Assembly: GCF_053078305.1 (NCBI RefSeq) | Contig: NZ_CP166879.1 | Length of the DNA: 64,000 nucleotides | Strand: one strand, 5' to 3' | Shown here: piece after piece, positions 55,770-64,000 of the stretch | Layout: each line of letters starts with the position of its first letter | How positions within the stretch are numbered: position 1 is the stretch's first letter | Made by a program: the position numbers and the translations under genes | Notes under the pieces: generated by a model | What the model was told of the DNA's origin: nothing | Database searches by the model: none | What the model saw: only the letters and a program-made list of their open reading frames with translations

Positions 55770-55836
55770 CAGAAACACAGAAAAGAAGCGATTTGCCGCA
55801 ATCTTAAGCAGTTGAATCGCTTTTACTGAAATTAGG

Positions 55837-55865
55837 TTGACGAGATGTGCAGATTACGGTTTAAT
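55837..55865 (+). promoter_or_regulatory. sigma-70 promoter of tRNA-Phe (pheU)
   Basis: TTGACG (55837-55842) - 17 nt - TTTAAT (55860-55865), GC-rich discriminator gcgcc, 10 nt before the mature tRNA 5' end. Confidence 0.65.
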
Positions 55866-55875
55866 GCGCCCCGTT

Positions 55876-55951
55876 GCCCGGATAGCTCAGTCGGTAGAGC
55901 AGGGGATTGAAAATCCCCGTGTCGGTGGTTCGATTCCGCCTCCGGGCACCA
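55876..55951 (+). tRNA. pheU: tRNA-Phe (GAA) with variant T-stem
   Basis: GCCCGGATAGCTCAGTCGGTAGAGCAGGGGATTGAAAATCCCCGTGTCGGTGGTTCGATTCCGCCTCCGGGCACCA; identical to recalled E. coli tRNA-Phe except two compensatory base-pair changes in the T-stem (49-65 and 50-64). Confidence 0.95.
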
Positions 55952-56146
55952 TATACCAGAACACGCTGGTTAAGGGATGAGATCCTTGACGGGCGGTTAA
56001 TACAGGATGCGGCATCAAAGGGTCTCCGTTTGTGTAAGTTGTGGTTACACTGATTGAGTTCGGTATCGTATCCTCAAACAGGGTCTCTTTTGCAGAGACG
56101 CCCTGTTCTCGTTAACACTGTATGCTTACATTGCTGATTCAGCCTG

Positions 56147-57217
56147 TCAAGATTTATTCCCCCCTTTGCAAATCTTGCTCACTGTGCGCTCATCTGTATA
56201 CAAACTCAGGGCATCTTCCAGTGTCTGCGCTGCAGACTCCATACAGACATCAACATACCCCATGGTCGTTGTAAGACTCCTGTGTCCCAGTATGGATTTG
56301 ACCAGATGTAAATTACGTTCAGGATATTTCATCAGTCTGGTTGCCAGCGTATGTCTGAAACGATGTGGTGAAACAGGAAAACCACATTCTCGCGAAAGTC
56401 GCCGGAAAAATGAACGTACGGTCTGATGCGCCCGAACGGGACAGTACTGATATCTGTCGGCAGAGATCGGCTCACTGAAACGACAGACGTCAAAAAGATA
56501 GTCATCATCACCTGCCCCGCACTGACGGGCCCGCTCCAGCAGTTTTTCCATCGATACCTTCAGGGGAGCCACCAGAGGAACGCCCCATTCCCTGTGAGTT
56601 TTACTTCCCTCCAGCTTAAGATCAATTATGCTTTCATCCGGACAGACATCCCTCACACGGATATGCTTCAGTTGATTAAAGCGCATTCCGGTATAACGCA
56701 GAACATCCAGAACTGTCAGCCAGTACCAGGCAGGGTATATAGCATTGCGTCGACGACTATTCACCATGTTCTGCTCTTCCGCTTCTGCAAACCTCTGCAC
56801 AACCAGGTAAACCCTGAGCATCTGATTGTCACTCAGTGTCTTTTTCTTTTTTTCAGTACTCGCAACTGATGCTTCCACCAACGGGTTTTCTGTCTGAGGC
56901 AGCAGTTTCATCTTGATCCCGAATCCCATAATTGCCCGCAAGTGGGCCACCTTGTTATTCCAGGTCACCTCCCTGCGCTTCTGCTCTTTCAGGACATAAC
57001 GCCGGTATCGCTGAACATCACGGACAGTCACCTCCCCCGGCAAAATATCACCGATAAATTCCCTGAATACCCTGACAACTTTGCAGTAGCTCCACTCTGT
57101 ATCCGGCCGAAGATTCTTTGAAAAAAAGTACTCTTCCAGCAGTTGTTCCCAGGTGATTTTTGTGACGGAATCGTCATTCTGCATTATATATTCCCCTTGT
57201 TTACTGTGCTCCCGCAC
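56147..57217 (-). CDS. tyrosine-type site-specific recombinase (island integrase)
   Basis: ORF 356 aa; C-terminal catalytic residues visible (HRFRHT ... LGHRS ... MGYV with catalytic Tyr); transcribed toward the tRNA-Phe attachment site; possible alternative start at ATG 57184. Confidence 0.85.
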   Translation of the reverse strand: MREHSKQGEYIMQNDDSVTKITWEQLLEEYFFSKNLRPDTEWSYCKVVRVFREFIGDILPGEVTVRDVQRYRRYVLKEQKRREVTWNNKVAHLRAIMGFGIKMKLLPQTENPLVEASVASTEKKKKTLSDNQMLRVYLVVQRFAEAEEQNMVNSRRRNAIYPAWYWLTVLDVLRYTGMRFNQLKHIRVRDVCPDESIIDLKLEGSKTHREWGVPLVAPLKVSMEKLLERARQCGAGDDDYLFDVCRFSEPISADRYQYCPVRAHQTVRSFFRRLSRECGFPVSPHRFRHTLATRLMKYPERNLHLVKSILGHRSLTTTMGYVDVCMESAAQTLEDALSLYTDERTVSKICKGGNKS

Positions 57218-57251
57218 TCTCCGGTCAAATTCTGCACATCATCGCCTTTAC

Positions 57252-58739
57252 TCACCCGAAAACAATAAGCGGGCTGTCTCCGGGAACCGTAATATTCCCG
57301 TACAGAAACCTGCCCTTAACCAGATATCCCGAAACCATTTTGTAACGTCCGGAATGTTCTGCGTCACTATAAAGACGGGCCTGAAAAAAACGCTCTCCTG
57401 AACGTACCTTATGGATACCTGCCCGTTCAAAGAGCGACTGAACATAACGACGATCCTGCCCGGAACCACTCTCCTTCAGAAAACGATAAAAAATCCCCGG
57501 GGCACACAGAAAAACATATCCGGAAACAACATGAACATTTGAATCAACGCTGTTAACCGAAAGTGAACCCTCCCTCAGCCCCTCTTTTAACCATCTGATA
57601 AATTCACTCTCTACCCTGCTATCCTCTGTCAGGGAAAACTCTGCCGTTTTTTCCACTGTTTCCGGGATACGGTTTCCCTGATTTTCTGTTACACATCCGC
57701 TCTCTTCCGGTAACTCAATACCGCTTTCTTTATCCGGCGGCACGCCTGACGCTATCTGCCCTCCCTCATCCGACAAATCAGCAGCAGAAAACAGCGTAAG
57801 GAGCATTCCGGTATCAGCATCAGTTTCGTTCCCCTCATCCACCTCCTGTTCCGCTGTCCGGCCCTCATTTTCGGCATCCTCCACTGGCGACTGTACAACC
57901 GGCAACGGCTGAATGACGCTTTCTGCTGAAATTGCTGCTGACTGCAGCAGTACCGGAACAACCTCAGCCACCGGAACTTCGGCCACATCTCCTGCAGCGA
58001 GGGGACTCACGACTTCCTCCATAGCTTCCTGTAATACTGTACGTATCAGTGCCATTTCAGGATGCTGATGCCAGACTGCTCCGGCAAGATTCTGTAATGC
58101 CCCCGGGACAGTGGCAAGCCAGGCTCCCGCCTCTCCGGGCAGCAGTTGTCCCGCCATCAGGGCTGCCAGTTGCCGTCCCTCCGTTCCCTGGCAGGGCATC
58201 TTCCTGAACCGGAACCGGTATACGCCCTCAGGTACAGATATCCCCGGCTGCCAGCATCTGCCGTCGGCCTGTTCGCCTTCCAGTTCCGCCAGCAACGGCA
58301 GGTGATAAAACAGAGCCGACCAGAACACCACCATGTTCCACACACTCCCCTGCGCGGCCTGCTCTTCTGCTGTCGCTCCCGGTGGAAACATTCTGCCTCT
58401 GGCCAGCCGGACAGCATACGTCGTGAACTGCAGGGTCAGGTCACCAAAACCACCGGTGTAACCCCAGCGACCTTCTGCTGTGGCCGGCAGATTCTGACTG
58501 ACAGACAACAACTGATGCACAGGATCAAGACAAAGGCGCTGATACATATCCACCGGCATGGAACTGTTTTCCCATAACTGTTTCAGACACCTTTTCCTGA
58601 ACGGTGTGGATACCAGTACATCAGCCGGCAATGGTGTAAAATACCCCTCCGGCACCGTTTCCCCGGGAATATCCGTCCGGACATCAGAACATTCTGTCTT
58701 CACAGGAAATAACCTTTTCAGGCGTTCAAGCATGCCCAT
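57252..58739 (-). CDS. hypothetical 495-aa protein, translationally coupled partner of the SF1 helicase
   Basis: ORF 57252..58739; start overlaps helicase stop by 14 nt; N-domain and C-domain separated by an acidic low-complexity linker (about 57,630-57,900); no Walker A, HD or HNH motif recognisable by eye. Confidence 0.6.
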   Translation of the reverse strand: MGMLERLKRLFPVKTECSDVRTDIPGETVPEGYFTPLPADVLVSTPFRKRCLKQLWENSSMPVDMYQRLCLDPVHQLLSVSQNLPATAEGRWGYTGGFGDLTLQFTTYAVRLARGRMFPPGATAEEQAAQGSVWNMVVFWSALFYHLPLLAELEGEQADGRCWQPGISVPEGVYRFRFRKMPCQGTEGRQLAALMAGQLLPGEAGAWLATVPGALQNLAGAVWHQHPEMALIRTVLQEAMEEVVSPLAAGDVAEVPVAEVVPVLLQSAAISAESVIQPLPVVQSPVEDAENEGRTAEQEVDEGNETDADTGMLLTLFSAADLSDEGGQIASGVPPDKESGIELPEESGCVTENQGNRIPETVEKTAEFSLTEDSRVESEFIRWLKEGLREGSLSVNSVDSNVHVVSGYVFLCAPGIFYRFLKESGSGQDRRYVQSLFERAGIHKVRSGERFFQARLYSDAEHSGRYKMVSGYLVKGRFLYGNITVPGDSPLIVFG

Positions 58740-60276
58740 TCTCCTGAACCCGACCTGATGTGTCGTACCCGGTCCCCCGCAGACCTTCAGTTTTCTGCTG
58801 TTCTTCTGCCAGTTGGTGCATCAGGTCATTCAGTACCAGCGTCCTGAGGGCCCGGGTGACAGCCACATATAACAGACAGGTTTCATCATGACGCTCGGCC
58901 TCCGTCATCAGCGGAACCGTGATATCCTGGAAATCCTCATCCAGCATTACAACCGGCCACTCCAGCCCCTTGCTCCGGTGTGCCGTTGACACCGTGATAT
59001 CTGCATCCTGCTCATTCGTTACCGTATACTGCCGGAGAAGTTCCAGTTTTTTCGGTAACGGAAAACACAACTCCAGAAGCCGAAGGGACTGATTCATCTC
59101 CACATCCTTCGTGGATTTTGCAATATATTTATATTCTTCAAAATTCCTGTAGTCCCGGCGCAGCCTGTCTGAATGCATCCGTTCCGGCATATCAACCTGG
59201 AACCAGTAGAGATCCTCAAGTTCCCCGGTCCTGTAACCTTCGATTCCCCCCACCCAGTAAACCTTTTGCCCTTTCATTGCCGCCATCAGCGCAGTACCAA
59301 TCACACCCGCGACAGTACGACTGAGTACCGTGTAATGCCCCTGCAGATGTTCACGCGCATGGCATTTCAGCAATACCTCATCATCACCACCACAACCTTT
59401 CACCTCTCGTGTTTCACCTTCACGCTGCAGAAGCAGATTTGCCATACGAGCCACCGCCGGACCAAAACGGAAACTCTGTGTCAGCCACAACCGGTCCGCA
59501 TTCTTCAGTGCAGGATGGGAAAGCGCATTATTCGCACCCCGAAAGCGGTAAATCTGTTGATAACAATCTCCAACAAGGACCACCCGACACTTCTGCCCCA
59601 GAACCAGAGCAGTGGTCACCGGATTCGCATCCTGCGCCTCATCAAACAGGATGGTGTCCCATCGGTGAGACAGGTCTGCACCGGACAACTGGAAGAGTTT
59701 CAGATAAGTATCGTGCGTCACCGGGAACGTCCCCCCGGGGTTGCTCATTTCGTTCCAGAGCAACTGCACCGCCCGAAGCGCATCTGCTGGCGGAACACCC
59801 CGCATCTCATCCTTATCCGGCAGGTGATGCAGGCCCGGTACCGCATCAGCAGAACAGATAAAATGATTCAGCCCCGTCCCTGCCACCCGTGCCAGAGCCC
59901 AGTATCGTGTATTCAGCTTTCTCGCCACATCAGTAATACGTAATCCCGGAACCAGCCGATGACGGTAGTGTCTTCCAACCCGGGCATACGCCAGCTGATG
60001 TGACGTTCTGCATTCCACGTTAAAGGGAAATTTACGCTCTGCCTCATCACGTATTGCCCGGTTATAGGCAAGATAGAGCATACGGCTGTCCGGACTGGCC
60101 CGGGCAAACTGCACCAGCGTACTCGTCTTCCCTGTGCCGGAAAACGCATTCACAACCAGTTGCTGCCCCTGCCAGTTAATAATGGCGTACTGTTCATCTG
60201 TGGGATTAAAAGACATGTATTCTCTTCTCCGGAAAAACATTTCCGTAATCTGATGCATCAGGGGTATGCCCACCAC
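58726..60276 (-). CDS. superfamily-1 UvrD/PcrA-like DNA helicase
   Basis: ORF 516 aa; Walker A SGTGKT (about 60,124-60,141), motif II FDEAQD, motif IV QSFRF, motif V/VI TAHRSKGLEWPVV; true start may be an internal ATG (MSFNPTDEQ..., 60216). Confidence 0.85.
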   Translation of the reverse strand: MVGIPLMHQITEMFFRRREYMSFNPTDEQYAIINWQGQQLVVNAFSGTGKTSTLVQFARASPDSRMLYLAYNRAIRDEAERKFPFNVECRTSHQLAYARVGRHYRHRLVPGLRITDVARKLNTRYWALARVAGTGLNHFICSADAVPGLHHLPDKDEMRGVPPADALRAVQLLWNEMSNPGGTFPVTHDTYLKLFQLSGADLSHRWDTILFDEAQDANPVTTALVLGQKCRVVLVGDCYQQIYRFRGANNALSHPALKNADRLWLTQSFRFGPAVARMANLLLQREGETREVKGCGGDDEVLLKCHAREHLQGHYTVLSRTVAGVIGTALMAAMKGQKVYWVGGIEGYRTGELEDLYWFQVDMPERMHSDRLRRDYRNFEEYKYIAKSTKDVEMNQSLRLLELCFPLPKKLELLRQYTVTNEQDADITVSTAHRSKGLEWPVVMLDEDFQDITVPLMTEAERHDETCLLYVAVTRALRTLVLNDLMHQLAEEQQKTEGLRGTGYDTSGRVQENGHA

Positions 60277-60447
60277 AAATAACTCTGTACAGCAACAGAA
60301 AAATTTCCCTGGTCATATGATGAATTAATCATCGCCATCACACCGGATGCTTCTCATCCTGTCCTCAGAAAGACAGGTGGTCTCCTGTCTGCCGCGCTTA
60401 TCCAGGATACCGGGACCTGAAAGGTCATAATCTGGCAGGAAAAAATA

Positions 60448-62124
60448 ATGTCCGAAGTAAAAAAACACGTTTCTTATTCATTAACAGTTGCAGCTATGCT
60501 GTCAGCCGCCATCGTCTGTCAGACAGCACATGCTGATATCAACACACCGAACATCACCGGAGAAAAAAACAATACAACAACACGATTCTCCGGAAATATT
60601 TACGGCAGTGAAAATACTGTCACATCAGAGTCAAACAGTCTGGTTGTGGGTAACAGTAATTCCGTGGAGGGAGGGTATAACAACATTGTTATTGGTAATT
60701 CCTCCACGGTCAAAGCTTCCGGTTTGATCAGAAAAGTGGGCGAAGATATTGTGCTGGATGGTTACAGCGTCAGCCTCGGTAATGCCACCAGAATTAACGG
60801 TGATTCATCTGTTGCCATAGGTCTGACATCGTCCGTAACCGGGAACGACTCCGTGGCACTGGGCAGTCATTCCAGTGCTAACGGAAACAATATCGTATCC
60901 GTCGGCTCTGACACACTGAAACGCCGCATCACAAATCTGGCACAGGGGAAAGATGACCATGATGCGGTAAATCTGATGCAGATGACCAGTGCTGTTAACC
61001 GGGAAGCTGGAGAAAGAATAAAATCAACAAACAACCTGCAGAATCAGCTTAATACCCTCTCTGGTCAGGTCATAACTGAAACCAGGGCCCGAACAGAAGG
61101 TGATGCAGCAGCGCTGGCTGCAGCCAGAGCCCACAGCGATGAAAACGACAAAAGAACACTGGTCAGTGCGAATACCTATGCTGACCAGAAAGAAACCGCC
61201 ATCAATAACCGTACTGACGGATTACTGACGACCGAACGCCAGGCACGCACCGCAGGCGATACTGCAACTCTGGCTGCTGCCAGAACGCACAGCGATGAAA
61301 ACAACAAAAGAACACTGATCAGTGCGAATACCTATGCTGACCAGAAAGAAACCGCCATCAATAACCGTACTGACGGATTACTGGCTACAGAACGCCAGGC
61401 ACGCACCGCAGGCGATACTGCAACTCTGGCTGCTGCCAGAACGCACAGCGATGAAAACAACAAAAGAACACTGGTCAGTGCGAATACTTATGCTGACCAG
61501 AAAGAAACCGACATCAATAACCGTACTGACGGATTACTGGCTACAGAACGCCAGGCACGCACCGCAGGCGATACTGCAACTCTGGCTGCTGCCAGAACGC
61601 ACAGCGATGAAAACAACAAAAGAACACTGATCAGTGCGAATACCTATGCTGACCAGAAAGAAACCGCCATCAATAACCGTACTGACGGATTACTGACGAC
61701 CGAACGCCAGGCACGCATCGCAGGTGATGCCGCAACTCTGGCAACAGCAGCGGCATACAGTGACGCCGGGGATTCACTGACACTGAAACAGGCAACAGCC
61801 TACAGCGATATCAGTACCCGCCGGGCACTGTCAGAGGCCAATCGTTATACCGACAACAAATTCAGAAACCTGAGCAATAAAATTGAACGGGCAGAAAAAA
61901 GACTTAATGCAGGCATCGCCGGAGTGACAGCAATATCCTCCATCCCCTATGTGGCTGAAAATTCTTTTTCATACGGGATCGGCGTGGGTAACTATCAGAA
62001 CGCTAATGCTGTGGCCGCAGGCATTCAGTATAAAACATCACGTAATACCAATATACGCCTCAACATCTCCTGGGACTCATCTCATAACACCGCGATTGGT
62101 GCAGGGGTTGCCGGCGGCTGGTAA
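60448..62124 (+). CDS. YadA-like trimeric autotransporter adhesin (Eib/Saa-like architecture)
   Basis: ORF 558 aa; signal peptide, head with NSxxxG/SxxxG YadA-head repeats, neck, repeat-containing coiled-coil stalk, C-terminal YadA-type beta-barrel anchor ending ...AIGAGVAGGW. Confidence 0.85.
   Translation: MSEVKKHVSYSLTVAAMLSAAIVCQTAHADINTPNITGEKNNTTTRFSGNIYGSENTVTSESNSLVVGNSNSVEGGYNNIVIGNSSTVKASGLIRKVGEDIVLDGYSVSLGNATRINGDSSVAIGLTSSVTGNDSVALGSHSSANGNNIVSVGSDTLKRRITNLAQGKDDHDAVNLMQMTSAVNREAGERIKSTNNLQNQLNTLSGQVITETRARTEGDAAALAAARAHSDENDKRTLVSANTYADQKETAINNRTDGLLTTERQARTAGDTATLAAARTHSDENNKRTLISANTYADQKETAINNRTDGLLATERQARTAGDTATLAAARTHSDENNKRTLVSANTYADQKETDINNRTDGLLATERQARTAGDTATLAAARTHSDENNKRTLISANTYADQKETAINNRTDGLLTTERQARIAGDAATLATAAAYSDAGDSLTLKQATAYSDISTRRALSEANRYTDNKFRNLSNKIERAEKRLNAGIAGVTAISSIPYVAENSFSYGIGVGNYQNANAVAAGIQYKTSRNTNIRLNISWDSSHNTAIGAGVAGGW
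61087..61710 (+). repeat. four near-identical tandem 156-bp (52-aa) repeats within the adhesin stalk, plus a degenerate fifth copy
   Basis: Units begin at 61087, 61243, 61399, 61555 (each starting gca cgc acc gca ggc gat = ARTAGD); partial degenerate unit from 61711. Confidence 0.9.
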
Positions 62125-62269
62125 ATAATCTTGCGTACATACGGCATTATGGTATTCCATAATCACATTAATTCAGTACGCAACACAGCCCCATCCGGAA
62201 CAGACCACTGGACTGAGCGGGATAATCAAGGAAAAAGGGCGCGCAGTGAGGTCAGCCTTCACAACAATC

Positions 62270-62296
62270 CGGCGGCAGATTTCCTGCCGCCGTGTT
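62270..62296. terminator. GC-rich hairpin between convergent adhesin and toxin genes (candidate bidirectional terminator)
   Basis: ccggcggcag-atttc-ctgccgccg; no strong flanking T-run, so terminator function is uncertain. Confidence 0.45.
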
Positions 62297-62363
62297 GCCC
62301 GTTAACATTTAACTTCGTGGGCTGACGTTGCCACAAGCACCGTATTTCCCTGATTTATTCTGT

Positions 62364-62852
62364 TTATTTTATTGTGGATAATGATGCCAATGGCATGAAT
62401 AAAGTTCTTCCGGACTCCGGGAACGCCATAAAGCCATAATGTTTGTAAAATGCGACTGCCGTGTCATCTTTTGCATCAACAATAAGCGCATATGCTGCAA
62501 TTTCAGATGTGTATGCACGATATAGCGCATCAGCTAAAAGTGCTCCCCCAAGCCCCGTTCCTTTTGATGACAGACTTACTGCCAGTCGTCCCATACGAAT
62601 AGCCGGAATAGTGGGATATCGCGGAAGCTTTTTTCTCAAATGCTCAGGTAAGTCAGTTAATAATATACTGGCCGCTGATAACGTATAGTATCCGATGATA
62701 TGATGATCGTTATCTACAGCGACAAAACAGGCCGCGATGCGTCGTCGAATATCCTGTGTGACATGCTCTTTTATGTAACGGTCCAGAGCATCAGAGCCAC
62801 ATAAAAATGAGGTTCTGTCATATGTGCTGTTAAATGGTGTCAGTTGAAACAT
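62364..62852 (-). CDS. GNAT-family acetyltransferase toxin (TacT/AtaT/KacT-like)
   Basis: ORF 162 aa; acetyl-CoA-binding region with Gly-rich loop (TGLGGALLADA) and conserved Tyr; sits 5 nt downstream of a DUF1778 gene. Confidence 0.82.
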   Translation of the reverse strand: MFQLTPFNSTYDRTSFLCGSDALDRYIKEHVTQDIRRRIAACFVAVDNDHHIIGYYTLSAASILLTDLPEHLRKKLPRYPTIPAIRMGRLAVSLSSKGTGLGGALLADALYRAYTSEIAAYALIVDAKDDTAVAFYKHYGFMAFPESGRTLFMPLASLSTIK

Positions 62853-62857
62853 TATAT

Positions 62858-63139
62858 TTATTTTGTGTACAGCATATTATTACGGCGTTTAAAGGCCCGT
62901 TTAAGCGCATCATTCGGCTCTGTTGGTGACAGTAATGCCTGAGCAAAAATTTCCTGATCTGTCCGGGACAGTCGGATTATATCGGTTTGTTCGATAGCGC
63001 GTTGGGCCGCATCCTGAACGGCAGCAATGATAAAATCGGTCATAGTGCGCCCCTGGATTTCTGCAGCGCGCTTCAGCATGGCATGTAGTTCTGTGCTGAT
63101 CCTTGCTTCCAGTCGGGCAGTTTGTGTTGCAGATGGCAT
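62858..63139 (-). CDS. DUF1778 (RHH-like) antitoxin, TacA-like
   Basis: ORF 93 aa; N-terminal segment RLEARISTELHAMLKRAAEIQGRTMTDFI typical of DUF1778 antitoxins; upstream of the GNAT toxin. Confidence 0.8.
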   Translation of the reverse strand: MPSATQTARLEARISTELHAMLKRAAEIQGRTMTDFIIAAVQDAAQRAIEQTDIIRLSRTDQEIFAQALLSPTEPNDALKRAFKRRNNMLYTK

Positions 63140-63374
63140 GATTTGTACCTCCTGAATACACTGTACGGCAAATTGCCGTATTGTGCAAATTACACTCTGA
63201 CACCGGGACGGCAGACAGACATTCTGCCTGAAAAGAAAAATCAGATTCAGACAAAACTATCCGGGGGATGTTAACGCCACGATCTTTGACCATTGCATAC
63301 AGATAAAAGCTCAGATTATTTACCAGCAGTGACATCCGGAGTACACCGGGATTTTATCTGTGAGTGAACATACC

Positions 63375-63405
63375 CGGGCAAAAAAATCCCCCGAATTCAG
63401 GGGGG
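63375..63405 (-). terminator. rho-independent terminator downstream of the BON-domain gene
   Basis: Minus strand: ccccc-tgaattc-ggggg followed by atttttttg. Confidence 0.65.
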
Positions 63406-63556
63406 TGTCAAAGAGGAATTATGTATATTGGTTATTATAATGAGCACGCCTCCGGTATTCCGCGACGAATGTTCACGTGGTGGCATGAACGGCCCGGAAA
63501 CGTGCTCTTCTGATTTTTAACGTAAATTTACACTAAAGGCAACTCTGATACTGCCT

Positions 63557-64000
63557 TCACCGGATATAGGAGAAGGCCGTCGTGACCCGCTTCACTCCGC
63601 TCACCCTACTGGCAACATCTGCTGCCGCTCGCCCTTCCTGCTCTGTAACCAGGCCCAGTAAAAAGACTTCGCTGTTTTCTGTCACCACCTTGACACTGGA
63701 TGATTTGACACGGGCACTTGTGAGTAACTGAGAACGAATTTTTGTCGTAAGCCAGGCATCACCTGCCATTATGACCGGACTGACGGGTGTCCCCTGCCGG
63801 ATTTCATTATAGACCTCCTGAACACCATCGACACCGAGTGCTATCTGACGGGCACGGGCAGATAATTCACGGCCCGGAGACTGACCGATCAGCAGCACGC
63901 GTCCCTGATATGCAATCTCACTGATACGTGCTTCTTTTCTGATTTGTTCATCTTTTGAAAGTGCACTGCTGACCCTCAGCTCCAGCACTTCATCATCCAC
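63557..64000 (-). CDS. DolP/YraP-like dual-BON-domain lipoprotein paralog, C-terminal 147 aa (5' end outside window)
   Basis: Translation aligns by eye along its whole visible length with recalled E. coli DolP (YraP), e.g. LEVRVNSALSKDEQIKKEARI / GQSP..ELSARA / VKRVTTAF blocks, at roughly 60-70% identity. Confidence 0.8.
   Translation of the reverse strand: MDDEVLELRVSSALSKDEQIRKEARISEIAYQGRVLLIGQSPGRELSARARQIALGVDGVQEVYNEIRQGTPVSPVIMAGDAWLTTKIRSQLLTSARVKSSSVKVVTENSEVFLLGLVTEQEGRAAADVASRVSGVKRVTTAFSYIR

Follow-up and report, generated by a model that had tools for sequence, protein, structure and literature searches.

A UvrD-type helicase and a motif-less MOBH-family TraI homologue in the integrase-proximal backbone of an SPI-7/PFGI-1-type ICE at tRNA-Phe in Shiga-toxin Escherichia coli

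In ICEs of the SPI-7 family, traI and int make up the "integration module" (PMC3864950, Table 2). For example, traI (Sb0117) and int (Sb0118) of ICESb1, an ICE at tRNA-Phe, are marked in the same table as required for conjugation. ICEs of this family have been described to use a repeat of 52 bp that overlaps tRNA-Phe at its 3' end (PMC11278526). The relaxases of the MOBH type consist of a folded domain, a disordered linker, and a second folded domain (PMC6736028). In the prototype of MOBH2, the gonococcal TraI (Heilers et al. 2019), the residues HHH, H117, H161/D162/K165, and D267 were needed for Mn2+-dependent cleavage. When the 3H and HD motifs of this protein were mutated, DNA secretion in vivo was not abolished, and thus the loss of a motif need not mean the loss of function. 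For the motif-less proteins of the MOBH3 clade, it was suggested that they may "have an alternative function" (PMC6736028). In another type of element, ICEBs1, a PcrA-type helicase is needed for both replication and transfer, as cited in PMC3864950.

Here, a helicase, a TraI homologue, and an integrase were analyzed in a 64,000-nucleotide window (the whole stretch of DNA under study; contig NZ_CP166879.1). The tRNA-Phe gene pheU was located by ARAGORN on the plus strand at 55876..55951 and is the integration site of the element, on the attL side. Beside it, on the minus strand, lies the gene for a tyrosine recombinase, the ICE integrase, which is named "tyrosine-type recombinase/integrase" in RefSeq and encodes 345 amino acids from the PGAP start (56147..57184). 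Its longest open reading frame extends to 57217 (56147..57217), and its NCBIfam matches were Xer-like, every one below the cut-off. With traI adjoining this integrase next to a tRNA gene, the arrangement is that of the published integration module.

The ORF listing gave the same two frames as the initial annotation, both on the minus strand: one of 495 amino acids at 57252..58739 with an ATG start, and the longest helicase frame at 58726..60276, of 516 amino acids with a GTG start. The ORFs and ARAGORN also agreed with it that the pair and the integrase run in the same orientation, tightly packed, toward tRNA-Phe. The 14-nucleotide overlap that it had reported for the pair is right for the first ATG of traI (58739), but the second ATG, at 58733, appears to be the likelier start, with an AGGAG located 7 nucleotides upstream and the PGAP start at the same position. 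traI would then occupy 57252..58733 and overlap the helicase stop by 8 nucleotides (ATGCTTGA). For the helicase, the ATG at 60216 (MSFNPTDEQ) seems likelier than the GTG, giving a protein of 496 amino acids (58726..60216). Among the 34 related loci in which the helicase N terminus was matched, 29 have an ATG at the corresponding position. All three genes are already named in the RefSeq annotation, and traI-int is the published module, so the pair does not qualify as the "undescribed two-gene module" proposed earlier.

The intergenic region from the helicase start to a divergent YadA-like adhesin gene (60217..60447) presumably holds the promoter of the operon. A scan for consensus promoters and terminators found no more of them than in shuffled sequence and no promoter in 60217..60447. 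A 6-bp inverted repeat, CGGAAATGTTTTTCCG, is located at 60230..60245; inverted repeats occurred in about half of the upstream regions of relatives, at no fixed place. The last ~110 nucleotides can be aligned among relatives and contain T-rich blocks. When 23 upstream regions were aligned in search of oriT, only these T-rich blocks emerged and no oriT was identified; to place oriT within 60217..60447 is only a guess.

The trio belongs to an ICE of the SPI-7/PFGI-1/ICEclc family at tRNA-Phe in Shiga-toxin E. coli (STEC), where it is backbone and no new system. Near-identical STEC genomes contain the island as a complete SPI-7-type ICE of 76-80 kb with an MPF_G type IV secretion system (T4SS), TraD, DnaB-PI, ParAB, TopoIII, and SSB. 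In FHI_NMBU_10, whose trio is 99.8% identical, the element reaches from pheU to cadC and encodes TraD, a conjugative ATPase, TraG_N, TIGR037xx ICE proteins, PilL, TopoIII, SSB, DnaB-PI, and ParA/ParB, and no further relaxase is annotated in it. The same complete ICE was seen in OkiPb01692, which is among the best matches to positions 55800-64000 of the window. The ICE also encodes a replication module (DnaB-PI and the STY4528/STY4534 "replication proteins"), and in both ICE copies examined a gene for an Mrr_cat PD-(D/E)xK protein lies three genes upstream of traD. Since the T4SS lies beyond the end of the window, we infer from the near-identical genomes that the window's own strain probably carries the T4SS, TraD, and the replication module as well.

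An integrative mobilisable element, with its own integrase and relaxase and no conjugation machinery, had been suggested initially. This classification was abandoned, as the element encodes a full T4SS in two near-identical genomes. The cargo beside the trio varies, and the trio is the conserved backbone. Defense cargo, such as CBASS, was observed on related islands.

The earlier description of the helicase as a helicase core with a complete UvrD-like motif set was borne out by Pfam (UvrD-helicase, UvrD_C, and AAA_19) and by the motif positions. The set comprises Q, I, Ia, II, III, IV, V, and VI, with GTGKT at 47, DEAQD at 212, GDCYQQIYRFRGA at 236, QSFRF at 267, TAHRSKGLE at 431, and VAVTRA at 471 (516-aa numbering), and the protein is assigned to the SF1A UvrD family. 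Judging from family membership, it presumably acts with 3'-5' polarity in an ATP-dependent manner. NCBIfam holds no curated family for it, all matches being far below cut-off. The nearest solved relative is the helicase domain of human FBH1 (PDB 9XZJ; 185 bits, E 2e-53, residues 6-466), while PcrA scored 38 bits. With the IncC backbone gene "uvrD", the helicase shares 50.6% identity over 92% of its length. A literature search found no experimental or functional study of the helicase or of its IncC "uvrD" homologue, only passing mentions of the helicase of SPI-7-type ICEs and of IncC "uvrD", and nothing that links FBH1 to the helicases of conjugative elements.

It had also been proposed that the pair is a helicase-dependent anti-phage or anti-plasmid defense system riding on the island. 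The GajB-type PADLOC matches on the helicase (best E 1e-18) and the CBASS-type cargo of related islands would fit such a system, but these matches span generic UvrD motifs only, and neither the 495-aa protein nor the integrase had a PADLOC match. The genes flanking the helicase are traI and the divergent adhesin gene, and neither of them encodes a GajA-like ATPase/TOPRIM protein. In addition, the trio is a backbone that stays constant at the integrase end, with changing cargo beside it, and homologues are located in the conjugation regions of plasmids. A defense role is therefore extremely unlikely, and the helicase-TraI pair is known conjugative DNA-processing backbone. Among described systems, Gabija was considered and rejected, as neither the neighboring ORFs nor PADLOC provided a GajA beside the GajB-like helicase.

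Co-occurrence across genomes, which the initial annotation had proposed to examine, confirmed that the two genes travel together. The helicase was found immediately upstream of traI in 31 of the 56 assessable loci among 64 related loci. All but one of the 25 loci without it were from Xenorhabdus and had a truncated TraI, and outside this genus the synteny was kept in 31 of 32 assessable loci. An integrase follows TraI in most related loci, and the integrases adjoining TraI are 42-70% identical. In many loci, the integrase is followed within 3 kb by a tRNA-Phe gene on the other strand. Across genera, the helicase is the best conserved of the trio (60-75% identity), which points to purifying selection. 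Even where TraI identity has dropped to 31%, the pair is retained, with 52% identity in the helicase.

The pair also occurs on integrase-free MPF_G plasmids. On plasmid pEB102 (MPF_G, MOBH-typed), it lies next to DnaB-PI and ParB without an integrase, and MOB-suite types the TraI homologue as the MOBH relaxase of the plasmid; Pantoea plasmids likewise carry the pair without an integrase. Homologues of the helicase are found next to traFHG in the IncC (MOBH) backbone and, on a Citrobacter plasmid, 1.7 kb from mobH.

These data bear on whether the pair might be a non-functional relic of an ICE end in decay. Many truncated TraI-Int copies without a helicase exist in Xenorhabdus genomes, and IS elements disrupt some of the copies in E. 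coli (the H2 copy; IS600 and IS66 within a T4SS region). However, both ORFs were intact and at least 99% identical across 22 complete genomes, and the helicase has all its motifs besides being the best conserved of the trio, which makes decay very unlikely.

Pfam searches, structure prediction, and Foldseek, the checks proposed for the 495-aa protein, placed it in the TraI family. Its N terminus matched TraI_2 (PF07514; 8e-20), with coverage of model positions 1-196 of 324 only, and its C-terminal domain matched TraI_2_C (PF07515; DUF1528) at 3e-17. NCBIfam TIGR03760, "ICE relaxase, PFGI-1 class", scored 210.5 bits versus a curated cut-off of 161.4, whereas the MobH equivalog NF041494 (99.6 bits) stayed below its cut-off of 200. 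Relatives of the TIGR03760 type include PFL_4751 of PFGI-1, STY4665 of S. Typhi, ECA0613 of Pectobacterium HAI2, and Sb0117 of ICESb1. The C-terminal domain is 38% identical to PDB 2IPQ (STY4665; E 1e-22), and Foldseek superimposed the two with a target-normalized TM-score of 0.91 and an rmsd of 1.7. The top Foldseek matches of the TraI model were 3KQ5, counted with the N-terminal TraI_2 domain, and 2IPQ. STY4665 was also considered as one of the 551-aa E. coli/Salmonella homologues; since the 2IPQ sequence was absent from all compared proteins, it is only a more distant relative.

In the AlphaFold2 model, residues 30-250 and 370-495 had a pLDDT of >90 and residues 253-368 were disordered. The linker is acidic, with 26 D/E versus 4 K/R in 116 residues. 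Two folded domains separated by a long acidic linker had been recognized initially, and the model agrees. [quoted passage not shown] Of the earlier suggestion that the partner was an unrecognised relaxase of an integrative mobilisable element, the relaxase family thus stands through TraI_2, TraI_2_C, TIGR03760, and 2IPQ, and the element type does not. With a confident match to a relaxase family and a pair that adjoins integrases, the pair is essentially reduced to ordinary element backbone, as the initial annotation had foreseen for such a case.

The absence of a His/Asp catalytic motif, noted at the outset, proved to be real on motif comparison. The alternative 3H motif LPASExHHH is replaced by LPATAEGRW (HHH to GRW); this loss extends throughout the clade of TraI, and more distant relatives retain HHH. 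The HD motif (H...HDxGK...D) is lost as well, with GGFGDL in place of GGMLDH (the H being L) and LFYHLPL in place of LLHDIGK (HDxGK being YHLPL). This motif state matches that of the MOBH3 clade as described in PMC6736028. Y212 of the gonococcal TraI has an equivalent in Y174; since members of the family have Y, F, or W at this position, Y174 is unlikely to be a nucleophile. The clade retains Q82, P85, D100, E125, Q127, W134, W163, an aromatic-RFR motif, and the winged-helix domain, referred to here as DNA-facing features. In addition, Foldseek matched the C-terminal domain weakly to TcpK, an accessory protein that binds oriT.

The clade-wide loss of all HD and 3H ligands, with the DNA-facing features kept, raises the tentative possibility that TraI is a catalytically dead "pseudo-relaxase", which would recognize oriT, load the helicase, and dock the DNA on TraD while another protein nicks. 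The TcpK match and the alternative function suggested for MOBH3 proteins (PMC6736028) fit this. Candidate nickases would be the tyrosine recombinase (as MpsA in SGI1), a host enzyme, or the Mrr_cat protein in the T4SS cluster; the Mrr_cat gene lies near traD in both ICE copies examined, and MOBC relaxases are restriction-endonuclease-like (PMC6736028). However, no member of another relaxase family is annotated in the ICE, MOB-suite calls the pEB102 homologue the MOBH relaxase of that plasmid, and motif mutants of the gonococcal TraI still secrete DNA in vivo (PMC6736028).

An extension of this idea is more doubtful, namely that an enterobacterial MOBH branch has evolved around a TraI without a nuclease center, serving as a non-cutting oriT-recognition and loading factor for an FBH1-like helicase, with another enzyme nicking. 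An adjacent helicase was absent beside two canonical and three intermediate TraI genes and present beside fully degenerate ones. This small sample fits a restriction of helicase adjacency to a subclade of motif-less TraI proteins, which may be the case.

Taken together, helicase-traI-int is probably the integrase-proximal DNA-processing operon of this SPI-7/PFGI-1/ICEclc-family ICE at pheU, with a role in conjugation. In the mechanism we propose, Int would excise the ICE by recombination at the tRNA-Phe repeat, and TraI would recognize the oriT of the ICE through TraI_2 and the winged-helix TraI_2_C. As a relaxosome protein, TraI would then be passed to the coupling protein TraD and the MPF_G T4SS. 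Since a TraI of the MOBH type has no helicase domain, the separate, translationally coupled UvrD-type helicase may supply the strand unwinding that transfer requires, and also that needed to copy the excised circle by the rolling-circle mode. A physical coupling of TraI and helicase is likewise predicted.

That the pair mainly replicates or maintains the excised element, as a rolling-circle initiator with its helicase, rather than transferring it, we regard as unlikely. On integrase-free plasmid forms the pair stays beside DnaB-PI and ParB, and other ICE families replicate from oriT with a relaxase and a UvrD/PcrA-type helicase (PMC5812530; PMC3864950). However, the ICE already has its DnaB-PI and STY4528/STY4534 replication module, and the table in PMC3864950 marks ICESb1 traI as required for conjugation. 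The two roles are also not mutually exclusive.

What had been described as an island is one end, the integrase-proximal one, of a self-transmissible ICE. In Shiga-toxin E. coli, this ICE bears subtilase cytotoxin genes and adhesins, and the identity of the pair as transfer backbone bears on the mobility of these virulence genes. An entire, widespread ICE clade has a motif-less TraI that lacks every residue needed by the only biochemically studied MOBH enzyme. This clade of ICE "relaxases" travels with an uncharacterized helicase family that is also present on IncC resistance plasmids, and the nicking and unwinding of such elements are already recognized as a gap in the conjugation literature. 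If true, a non-cutting TraI with a separate nickase would mean a relaxosome organized unlike every characterized one.

Compared with known systems, the resemblance to ICEBs1 is one of working principle only. Its NicK relaxase, as cited in PMC3864950, has no helicase domain and relies on a separate UvrD/PcrA-type helicase; however, NicK belongs to the unrelated MOBT family, the helicase is host encoded (PcrA, with HelP), and the element is Gram positive. FBH1 and the helicase have all motifs in common, along with the family-specific blocks THDxYLKLxQLS and LTQSFRFG. However, FBH1, a eukaryotic protein that acts on RAD51 filaments, contains an F-box, whereas the bacterial protein consists of nothing but the helicase core. 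The "uvrD" of IncC/IncA likewise sits in a MOBH-type conjugative element beside transfer genes, between kfrA and traF. Unlike the present gene, it is not adjacent to traI, and the IncC TraI is a canonical MOBH1 enzyme.

Gonococcal TraI has homologous TraI_2 and TraI_2_C domains and a disordered middle, and neither protein contains a helicase domain. Its N-terminal folded domain comprises 300-400 residues compared with ~220 in the 495-aa TraI, in which all alignable motif residues are missing and D267 has no aligned equivalent. The commonest E. coli/Salmonella form (551 aa) is ~50% identical to the 495-aa TraI, whose linker is shorter. In PFGI-1, a sensor kinase and no helicase lies upstream of PFL_4751. 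With the TraI proteins of the SPI-7/PFGI-1 class (PFL_4751, STY4665, ECA0613, and Sb0117), the protein shares the domain order of TraI_2, disordered linker, and TraI_2_C, and its gene likewise adjoins the integrase gene at the tRNA-proximal end of an MPF_G ICE.

The window has an E. coli chromosomal backbone (aspA, dcuA, cutA, dsbD, and yjdC, followed by tRNA-Phe, pheU, at 55876..55951), and foreign DNA begins directly past the tRNA gene. Its first three genes all lie on the minus strand and point at the tRNA: a tyrosine recombinase (56147..57217), a 495-aa ORF (57252..58739), and a UvrD-type helicase (58726..60276 as the longest ORF). The initial annotation had described this layout accurately. 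Its 14-nt overlap between the helicase and the 495-aa gene holds for the first ATG of the latter; from the second ATG at 58733, which is preceded 7 nt 5' by AGGAG and is the start used by RefSeq, the overlap with the helicase stop is 8 nt (ATGCTTGA). For the helicase, the ATG at 60216 is the most probable start, because an ATG occupies the matching position in 29 of 34 related loci with a match to the helicase N terminus. A perfect 6-bp inverted repeat (CGGAAATGTTTTTCCG, 60230-60245) lies 14-29 nt 5' of this start, just ahead of the ribosome-binding site; similar repeats were found in some relatives, with no fixed position.

The 495-aa protein was assigned to a relaxase family by both profile and structure searches. 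Pfam TraI_2 was matched by residues 32-218 (8e-20, ending at model position 196 of 324) and TraI_2_C by residues 378-491 (3e-17). NCBIfam TIGR03760 ("integrating conjugative element relaxase, PFGI-1 class") gave 210.5 bits, above its curated cut-off of 161.4 bits; the MobH equivalog was not reached (99.6 versus 200 bits). As initially proposed, two folded domains flank an acidic linker: in the AlphaFold2 model, residues 30-250 and 370-495 are folded (pLDDT above 90), and the linker at 253-368 is disordered, with 26 acidic versus 4 basic residues. The best structural match of the whole model was 3KQ5, a Coxiella TraI_2/TraI_2_C protein. The C-terminal domain matched that of S. Typhi STY4665 (PDB 2IPQ; E 1e-22), with a target-normalized TM-score of 0.91 for the model on 2IPQ, and domains of this type are described as winged helices (PMC5862659). 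The domain order is exactly that of MOBH relaxases, in which a folded N-terminal domain and a disordered middle precede TraI_2_C (Heilers et al. 2019, PMC6736028).

The failure of the initial annotation to see a catalytic motif in this protein (hereafter TraI) reflects a real feature of its clade. The query was aligned with 89 cluster representatives (380-800 aa) drawn from the 150 best matches in 1.84 billion proteins. The canonical MOBH motifs LPASE(S/N)HHH..GGMLDHGLE, ALLHDIGK, and PYRFRY are found in the more distant relatives (25-32% identity; most are 500-740 aa long), whereas the query and its whole clade have VPAAxxGRW..GGFGDLTLQ, ALFYHLPLL, and PYRFRF. In gonococcal TraI, a biochemically studied MOBH enzyme, the cleavage and metal-binding residues are H106-108, H117, H161, D162, K165, and D267 (PMC6736028). 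All are replaced in the query except D267, which has no aligned equivalent. R48, Q82, P85, D100, E125, Q127, W134, W163, R175, and W207 are kept in both groups, and Y, F, or W occupies the position that corresponds to Y212. Such loss of the motifs has been described before, for the MOBH3 clade; the 2IPQ and 3KQ5 proteins are placed there, and it has been suggested that proteins of this kind may have an alternative function (PMC6736028).

The rest of the element was read from two related genomes. FHI_NMBU_10 is 99.8% identical over 4.4 kb, and its element runs about 80 kb, from pheU to just before cadC. Past a cargo of YadA-like adhesins, a dolP paralogue, subAB, and a sialic-acid cluster, it encodes TraG_N, a conjugative ATPase, TraD, PilL, a dozen TIGR037xx/PFL_46xx "integrating conjugative element" proteins, SSB, topoisomerase III, STY4528/STY4534-type replication proteins, ParB, ParA, and DnaB-PI, annotated as "SPI-7-type island replicative DNA helicase." OkiPb01692, among the best matches to window 55800-64000, has an equal gene set behind the trio, and no second relaxase is annotated in either copy. 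Because of this conjugation and replication gene set, the window appears to hold the integrase end of a complete ICE of the SPI-7/PFGI-1/ICEclc family. The initial annotation had suggested an integrative mobilizable element with an unrecognized relaxase-family partner; the partner stands, and the full conjugation gene set rules out the mobilizable element. Nor is the pair an undescribed two-gene module. The RefSeq records of 22 complete E. coli genomes, all at least 99% identical over the region, already name the trio "UvrD-helicase domain-containing protein," "TraI domain-containing protein," and "tyrosine-type recombinase/integrase," and traI plus int form the published "integration module" of this ICE family (PMC3864950, Table 2). 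For ICESb1, likewise at tRNA-Phe, the same table, summarizing Seth-Smith 2012, appears to mark traI and int as required for conjugation, its legend symbols being garbled.

Several features of the cargo were also recorded. In FHI_NMBU_10, subA/subB (L001 33876-35358) encode the subtilase AB5 cytotoxin, which therefore sits on a potentially self-transmissible element together with the sialic-acid (nan) utilization cluster. In the window, a YadA-like trimeric autotransporter adhesin (60448-62124, plus strand) diverges from the helicase and has a unit of ~50 residues (…SANTYADQKETAINNRTDGLL.TERQARTAGDTATLAAARTHSDENNKRTL…) repeated in tandem, in about five copies; such genes vary in number by strain, with one in the window and two in FHI_NMBU_10. 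A GNAT acetyltransferase (162 aa) and a small upstream ORF (93 aa), separated by 5 nt (62364-63139, minus strand), look like a TacT/TacA-type toxin-antitoxin arrangement; they occur in some other strains and are missing at the same place in FHI_NMBU_10. The ICE cargo also includes a divergent DolP/YraP paralogue (a BON-domain lipoprotein), whose gene runs off the window end (63557-64000, minus strand). Several bovine STEC genomes carry the trio in two copies. Island accretion at pheU is seen in OkiPb01692, where a second island (L079 19666-20931), with a P4-type integrase, ato genes, and iha, follows in tandem past the ParA end of the ICE.

The helicase has a full set of SF1 motifs, as initially noted, and is covered by no curated NCBIfam family. 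Among solved structures, the closest to it is the human FBH1 helicase domain (F-box DNA helicase 1; PDB 9XZJ), with 185 bits (E 2e-53, residues 6-466) compared with 30-38 bits for PcrA, UvrD, and Rep; our literature search found no paper linking FBH1 to conjugative-element helicases. Relatives occur in 1835 PLSDB plasmid records. The commonest, at 50.6% identity, is an IncC/IncA backbone gene usually labeled uvrD (L080 8980-10491 in the IncC plasmid pVb0506), which lies between kfrA and traF-traH-traG. A Citrobacter plasmid carries a relative of 37.7% identity at 1.7 kb from mobH, and relatives at about 30% identity are found on plasmids typed MOBP. No functional study of these plasmid relatives, the IncC gene included, was found in the literature searched.

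A synteny scan with one genome per species gave 64 loci encoding TraI relatives, all in Enterobacterales and all with degenerate motifs. A helicase homologue lies upstream of TraI in 31 of the 56 judgeable loci, overlapping it or within 90 nt except in three Pectobacterium loci (0.9-9 kb between). The helicase is the best conserved of the trio (60-75% identity versus 30-50% for TraI); it keeps 52% identity, and overlaps, even beside a TraI of only 31% identity. It is unlikely that the pair is a decaying remnant, since the ORFs are intact, the helicase motifs complete, and helicase conservation strong. Among the 25 loci missing the helicase, 24 are from Xenorhabdus, where up to three copies per genome of a TraI cut to 300-375 residues (L030-L062, L068) retain the N-terminal domain only, with F replacing the conserved Y. 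An integrase follows each of these copies, several adjoin tRNA-Phe, and none has the helicase; they could represent ICE ends in decay or a separate family of minimal islands.

An integrase lies 3' of TraI in most of the 64 loci, often with tRNA-Phe within 3 kb. The same trio, with other cargo that includes CBASS genes, occupies pheV or pheU in a second E. coli/Salmonella lineage, whose 551-aa TraI is 50% identical. The pair is not confined to integrases: it occurs on several Pantoea plasmids and, adjoining DnaB-PI and ParB, on pEB102 of Erwinia billingiae (conjugative, MOBH, MPF_G by MOB-suite). Because synteny persists across changing cargo and on integrase-free plasmids, the pair is associated with conjugative DNA processing rather than integration or cargo. 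The anti-phage or anti-plasmid system also suggested initially is disfavored, as the trio keeps its place while the cargo changes, the helicase homologue of IncC plasmids sits beside transfer genes, and the pair itself occurs on the conjugative pEB102. Given the confident relaxase-family match and a pair that adjoins integrases and also occurs on plasmid versions of these elements, the finding reduces, on the terms set by the initial annotation, to a standard ICE backbone of known type. What retains interest is the already recognized puzzle of motif-less MOBH proteins and the uncharacterized FBH1-like helicase that accompanies them and is common to IncC plasmids.

The identity, architecture, synteny, and element membership of the two genes are shown by the data. 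The reading with the best support is that of a relaxosome operon, in which we infer DNA binding by TraI, the role of the helicase, and any protein-protein contact. Int would excise the ICE, TraI would bind oriT and be coupled to TraD and the T4SS, and the cotranslated SF1A helicase would unwind the nicked strand for transfer and rolling-circle copying. A role in replication only is possible, though not an exclusive one, given that the ICE itself encodes a DnaB-type replication module. The relaxosome reading is weakest at the nicking step: since the metal centre of TraI is gone, either the clade would cut by a different chemistry, or TraI would be only a recognition and loading factor and another enzyme would cut. 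One candidate nickase is the tyrosine recombinase, by analogy with MpsA of SGI1 (PMC6414798). Because TraI is without catalytic residues, a 197-aa Mrr_cat protein with a PD-(D/E)xK restriction-endonuclease fold is another possibility; its gene (L072 34260-34853, minus strand, outside the window in the same ICE) lies within the T4SS cluster, and each of the two ICE copies has it three genes upstream of traD. In a small sample, the helicase was missing beside TraI genes with canonical or intermediate motifs and present beside fully degenerate ones, so that a link between helicase adjacency and full motif loss is suggestive only. In the relaxosome reading, the separate helicase would take the place of the in-cis helicase domain of MOBF relaxases, a role analogous to the dependence of ICEBs1 on PcrA.
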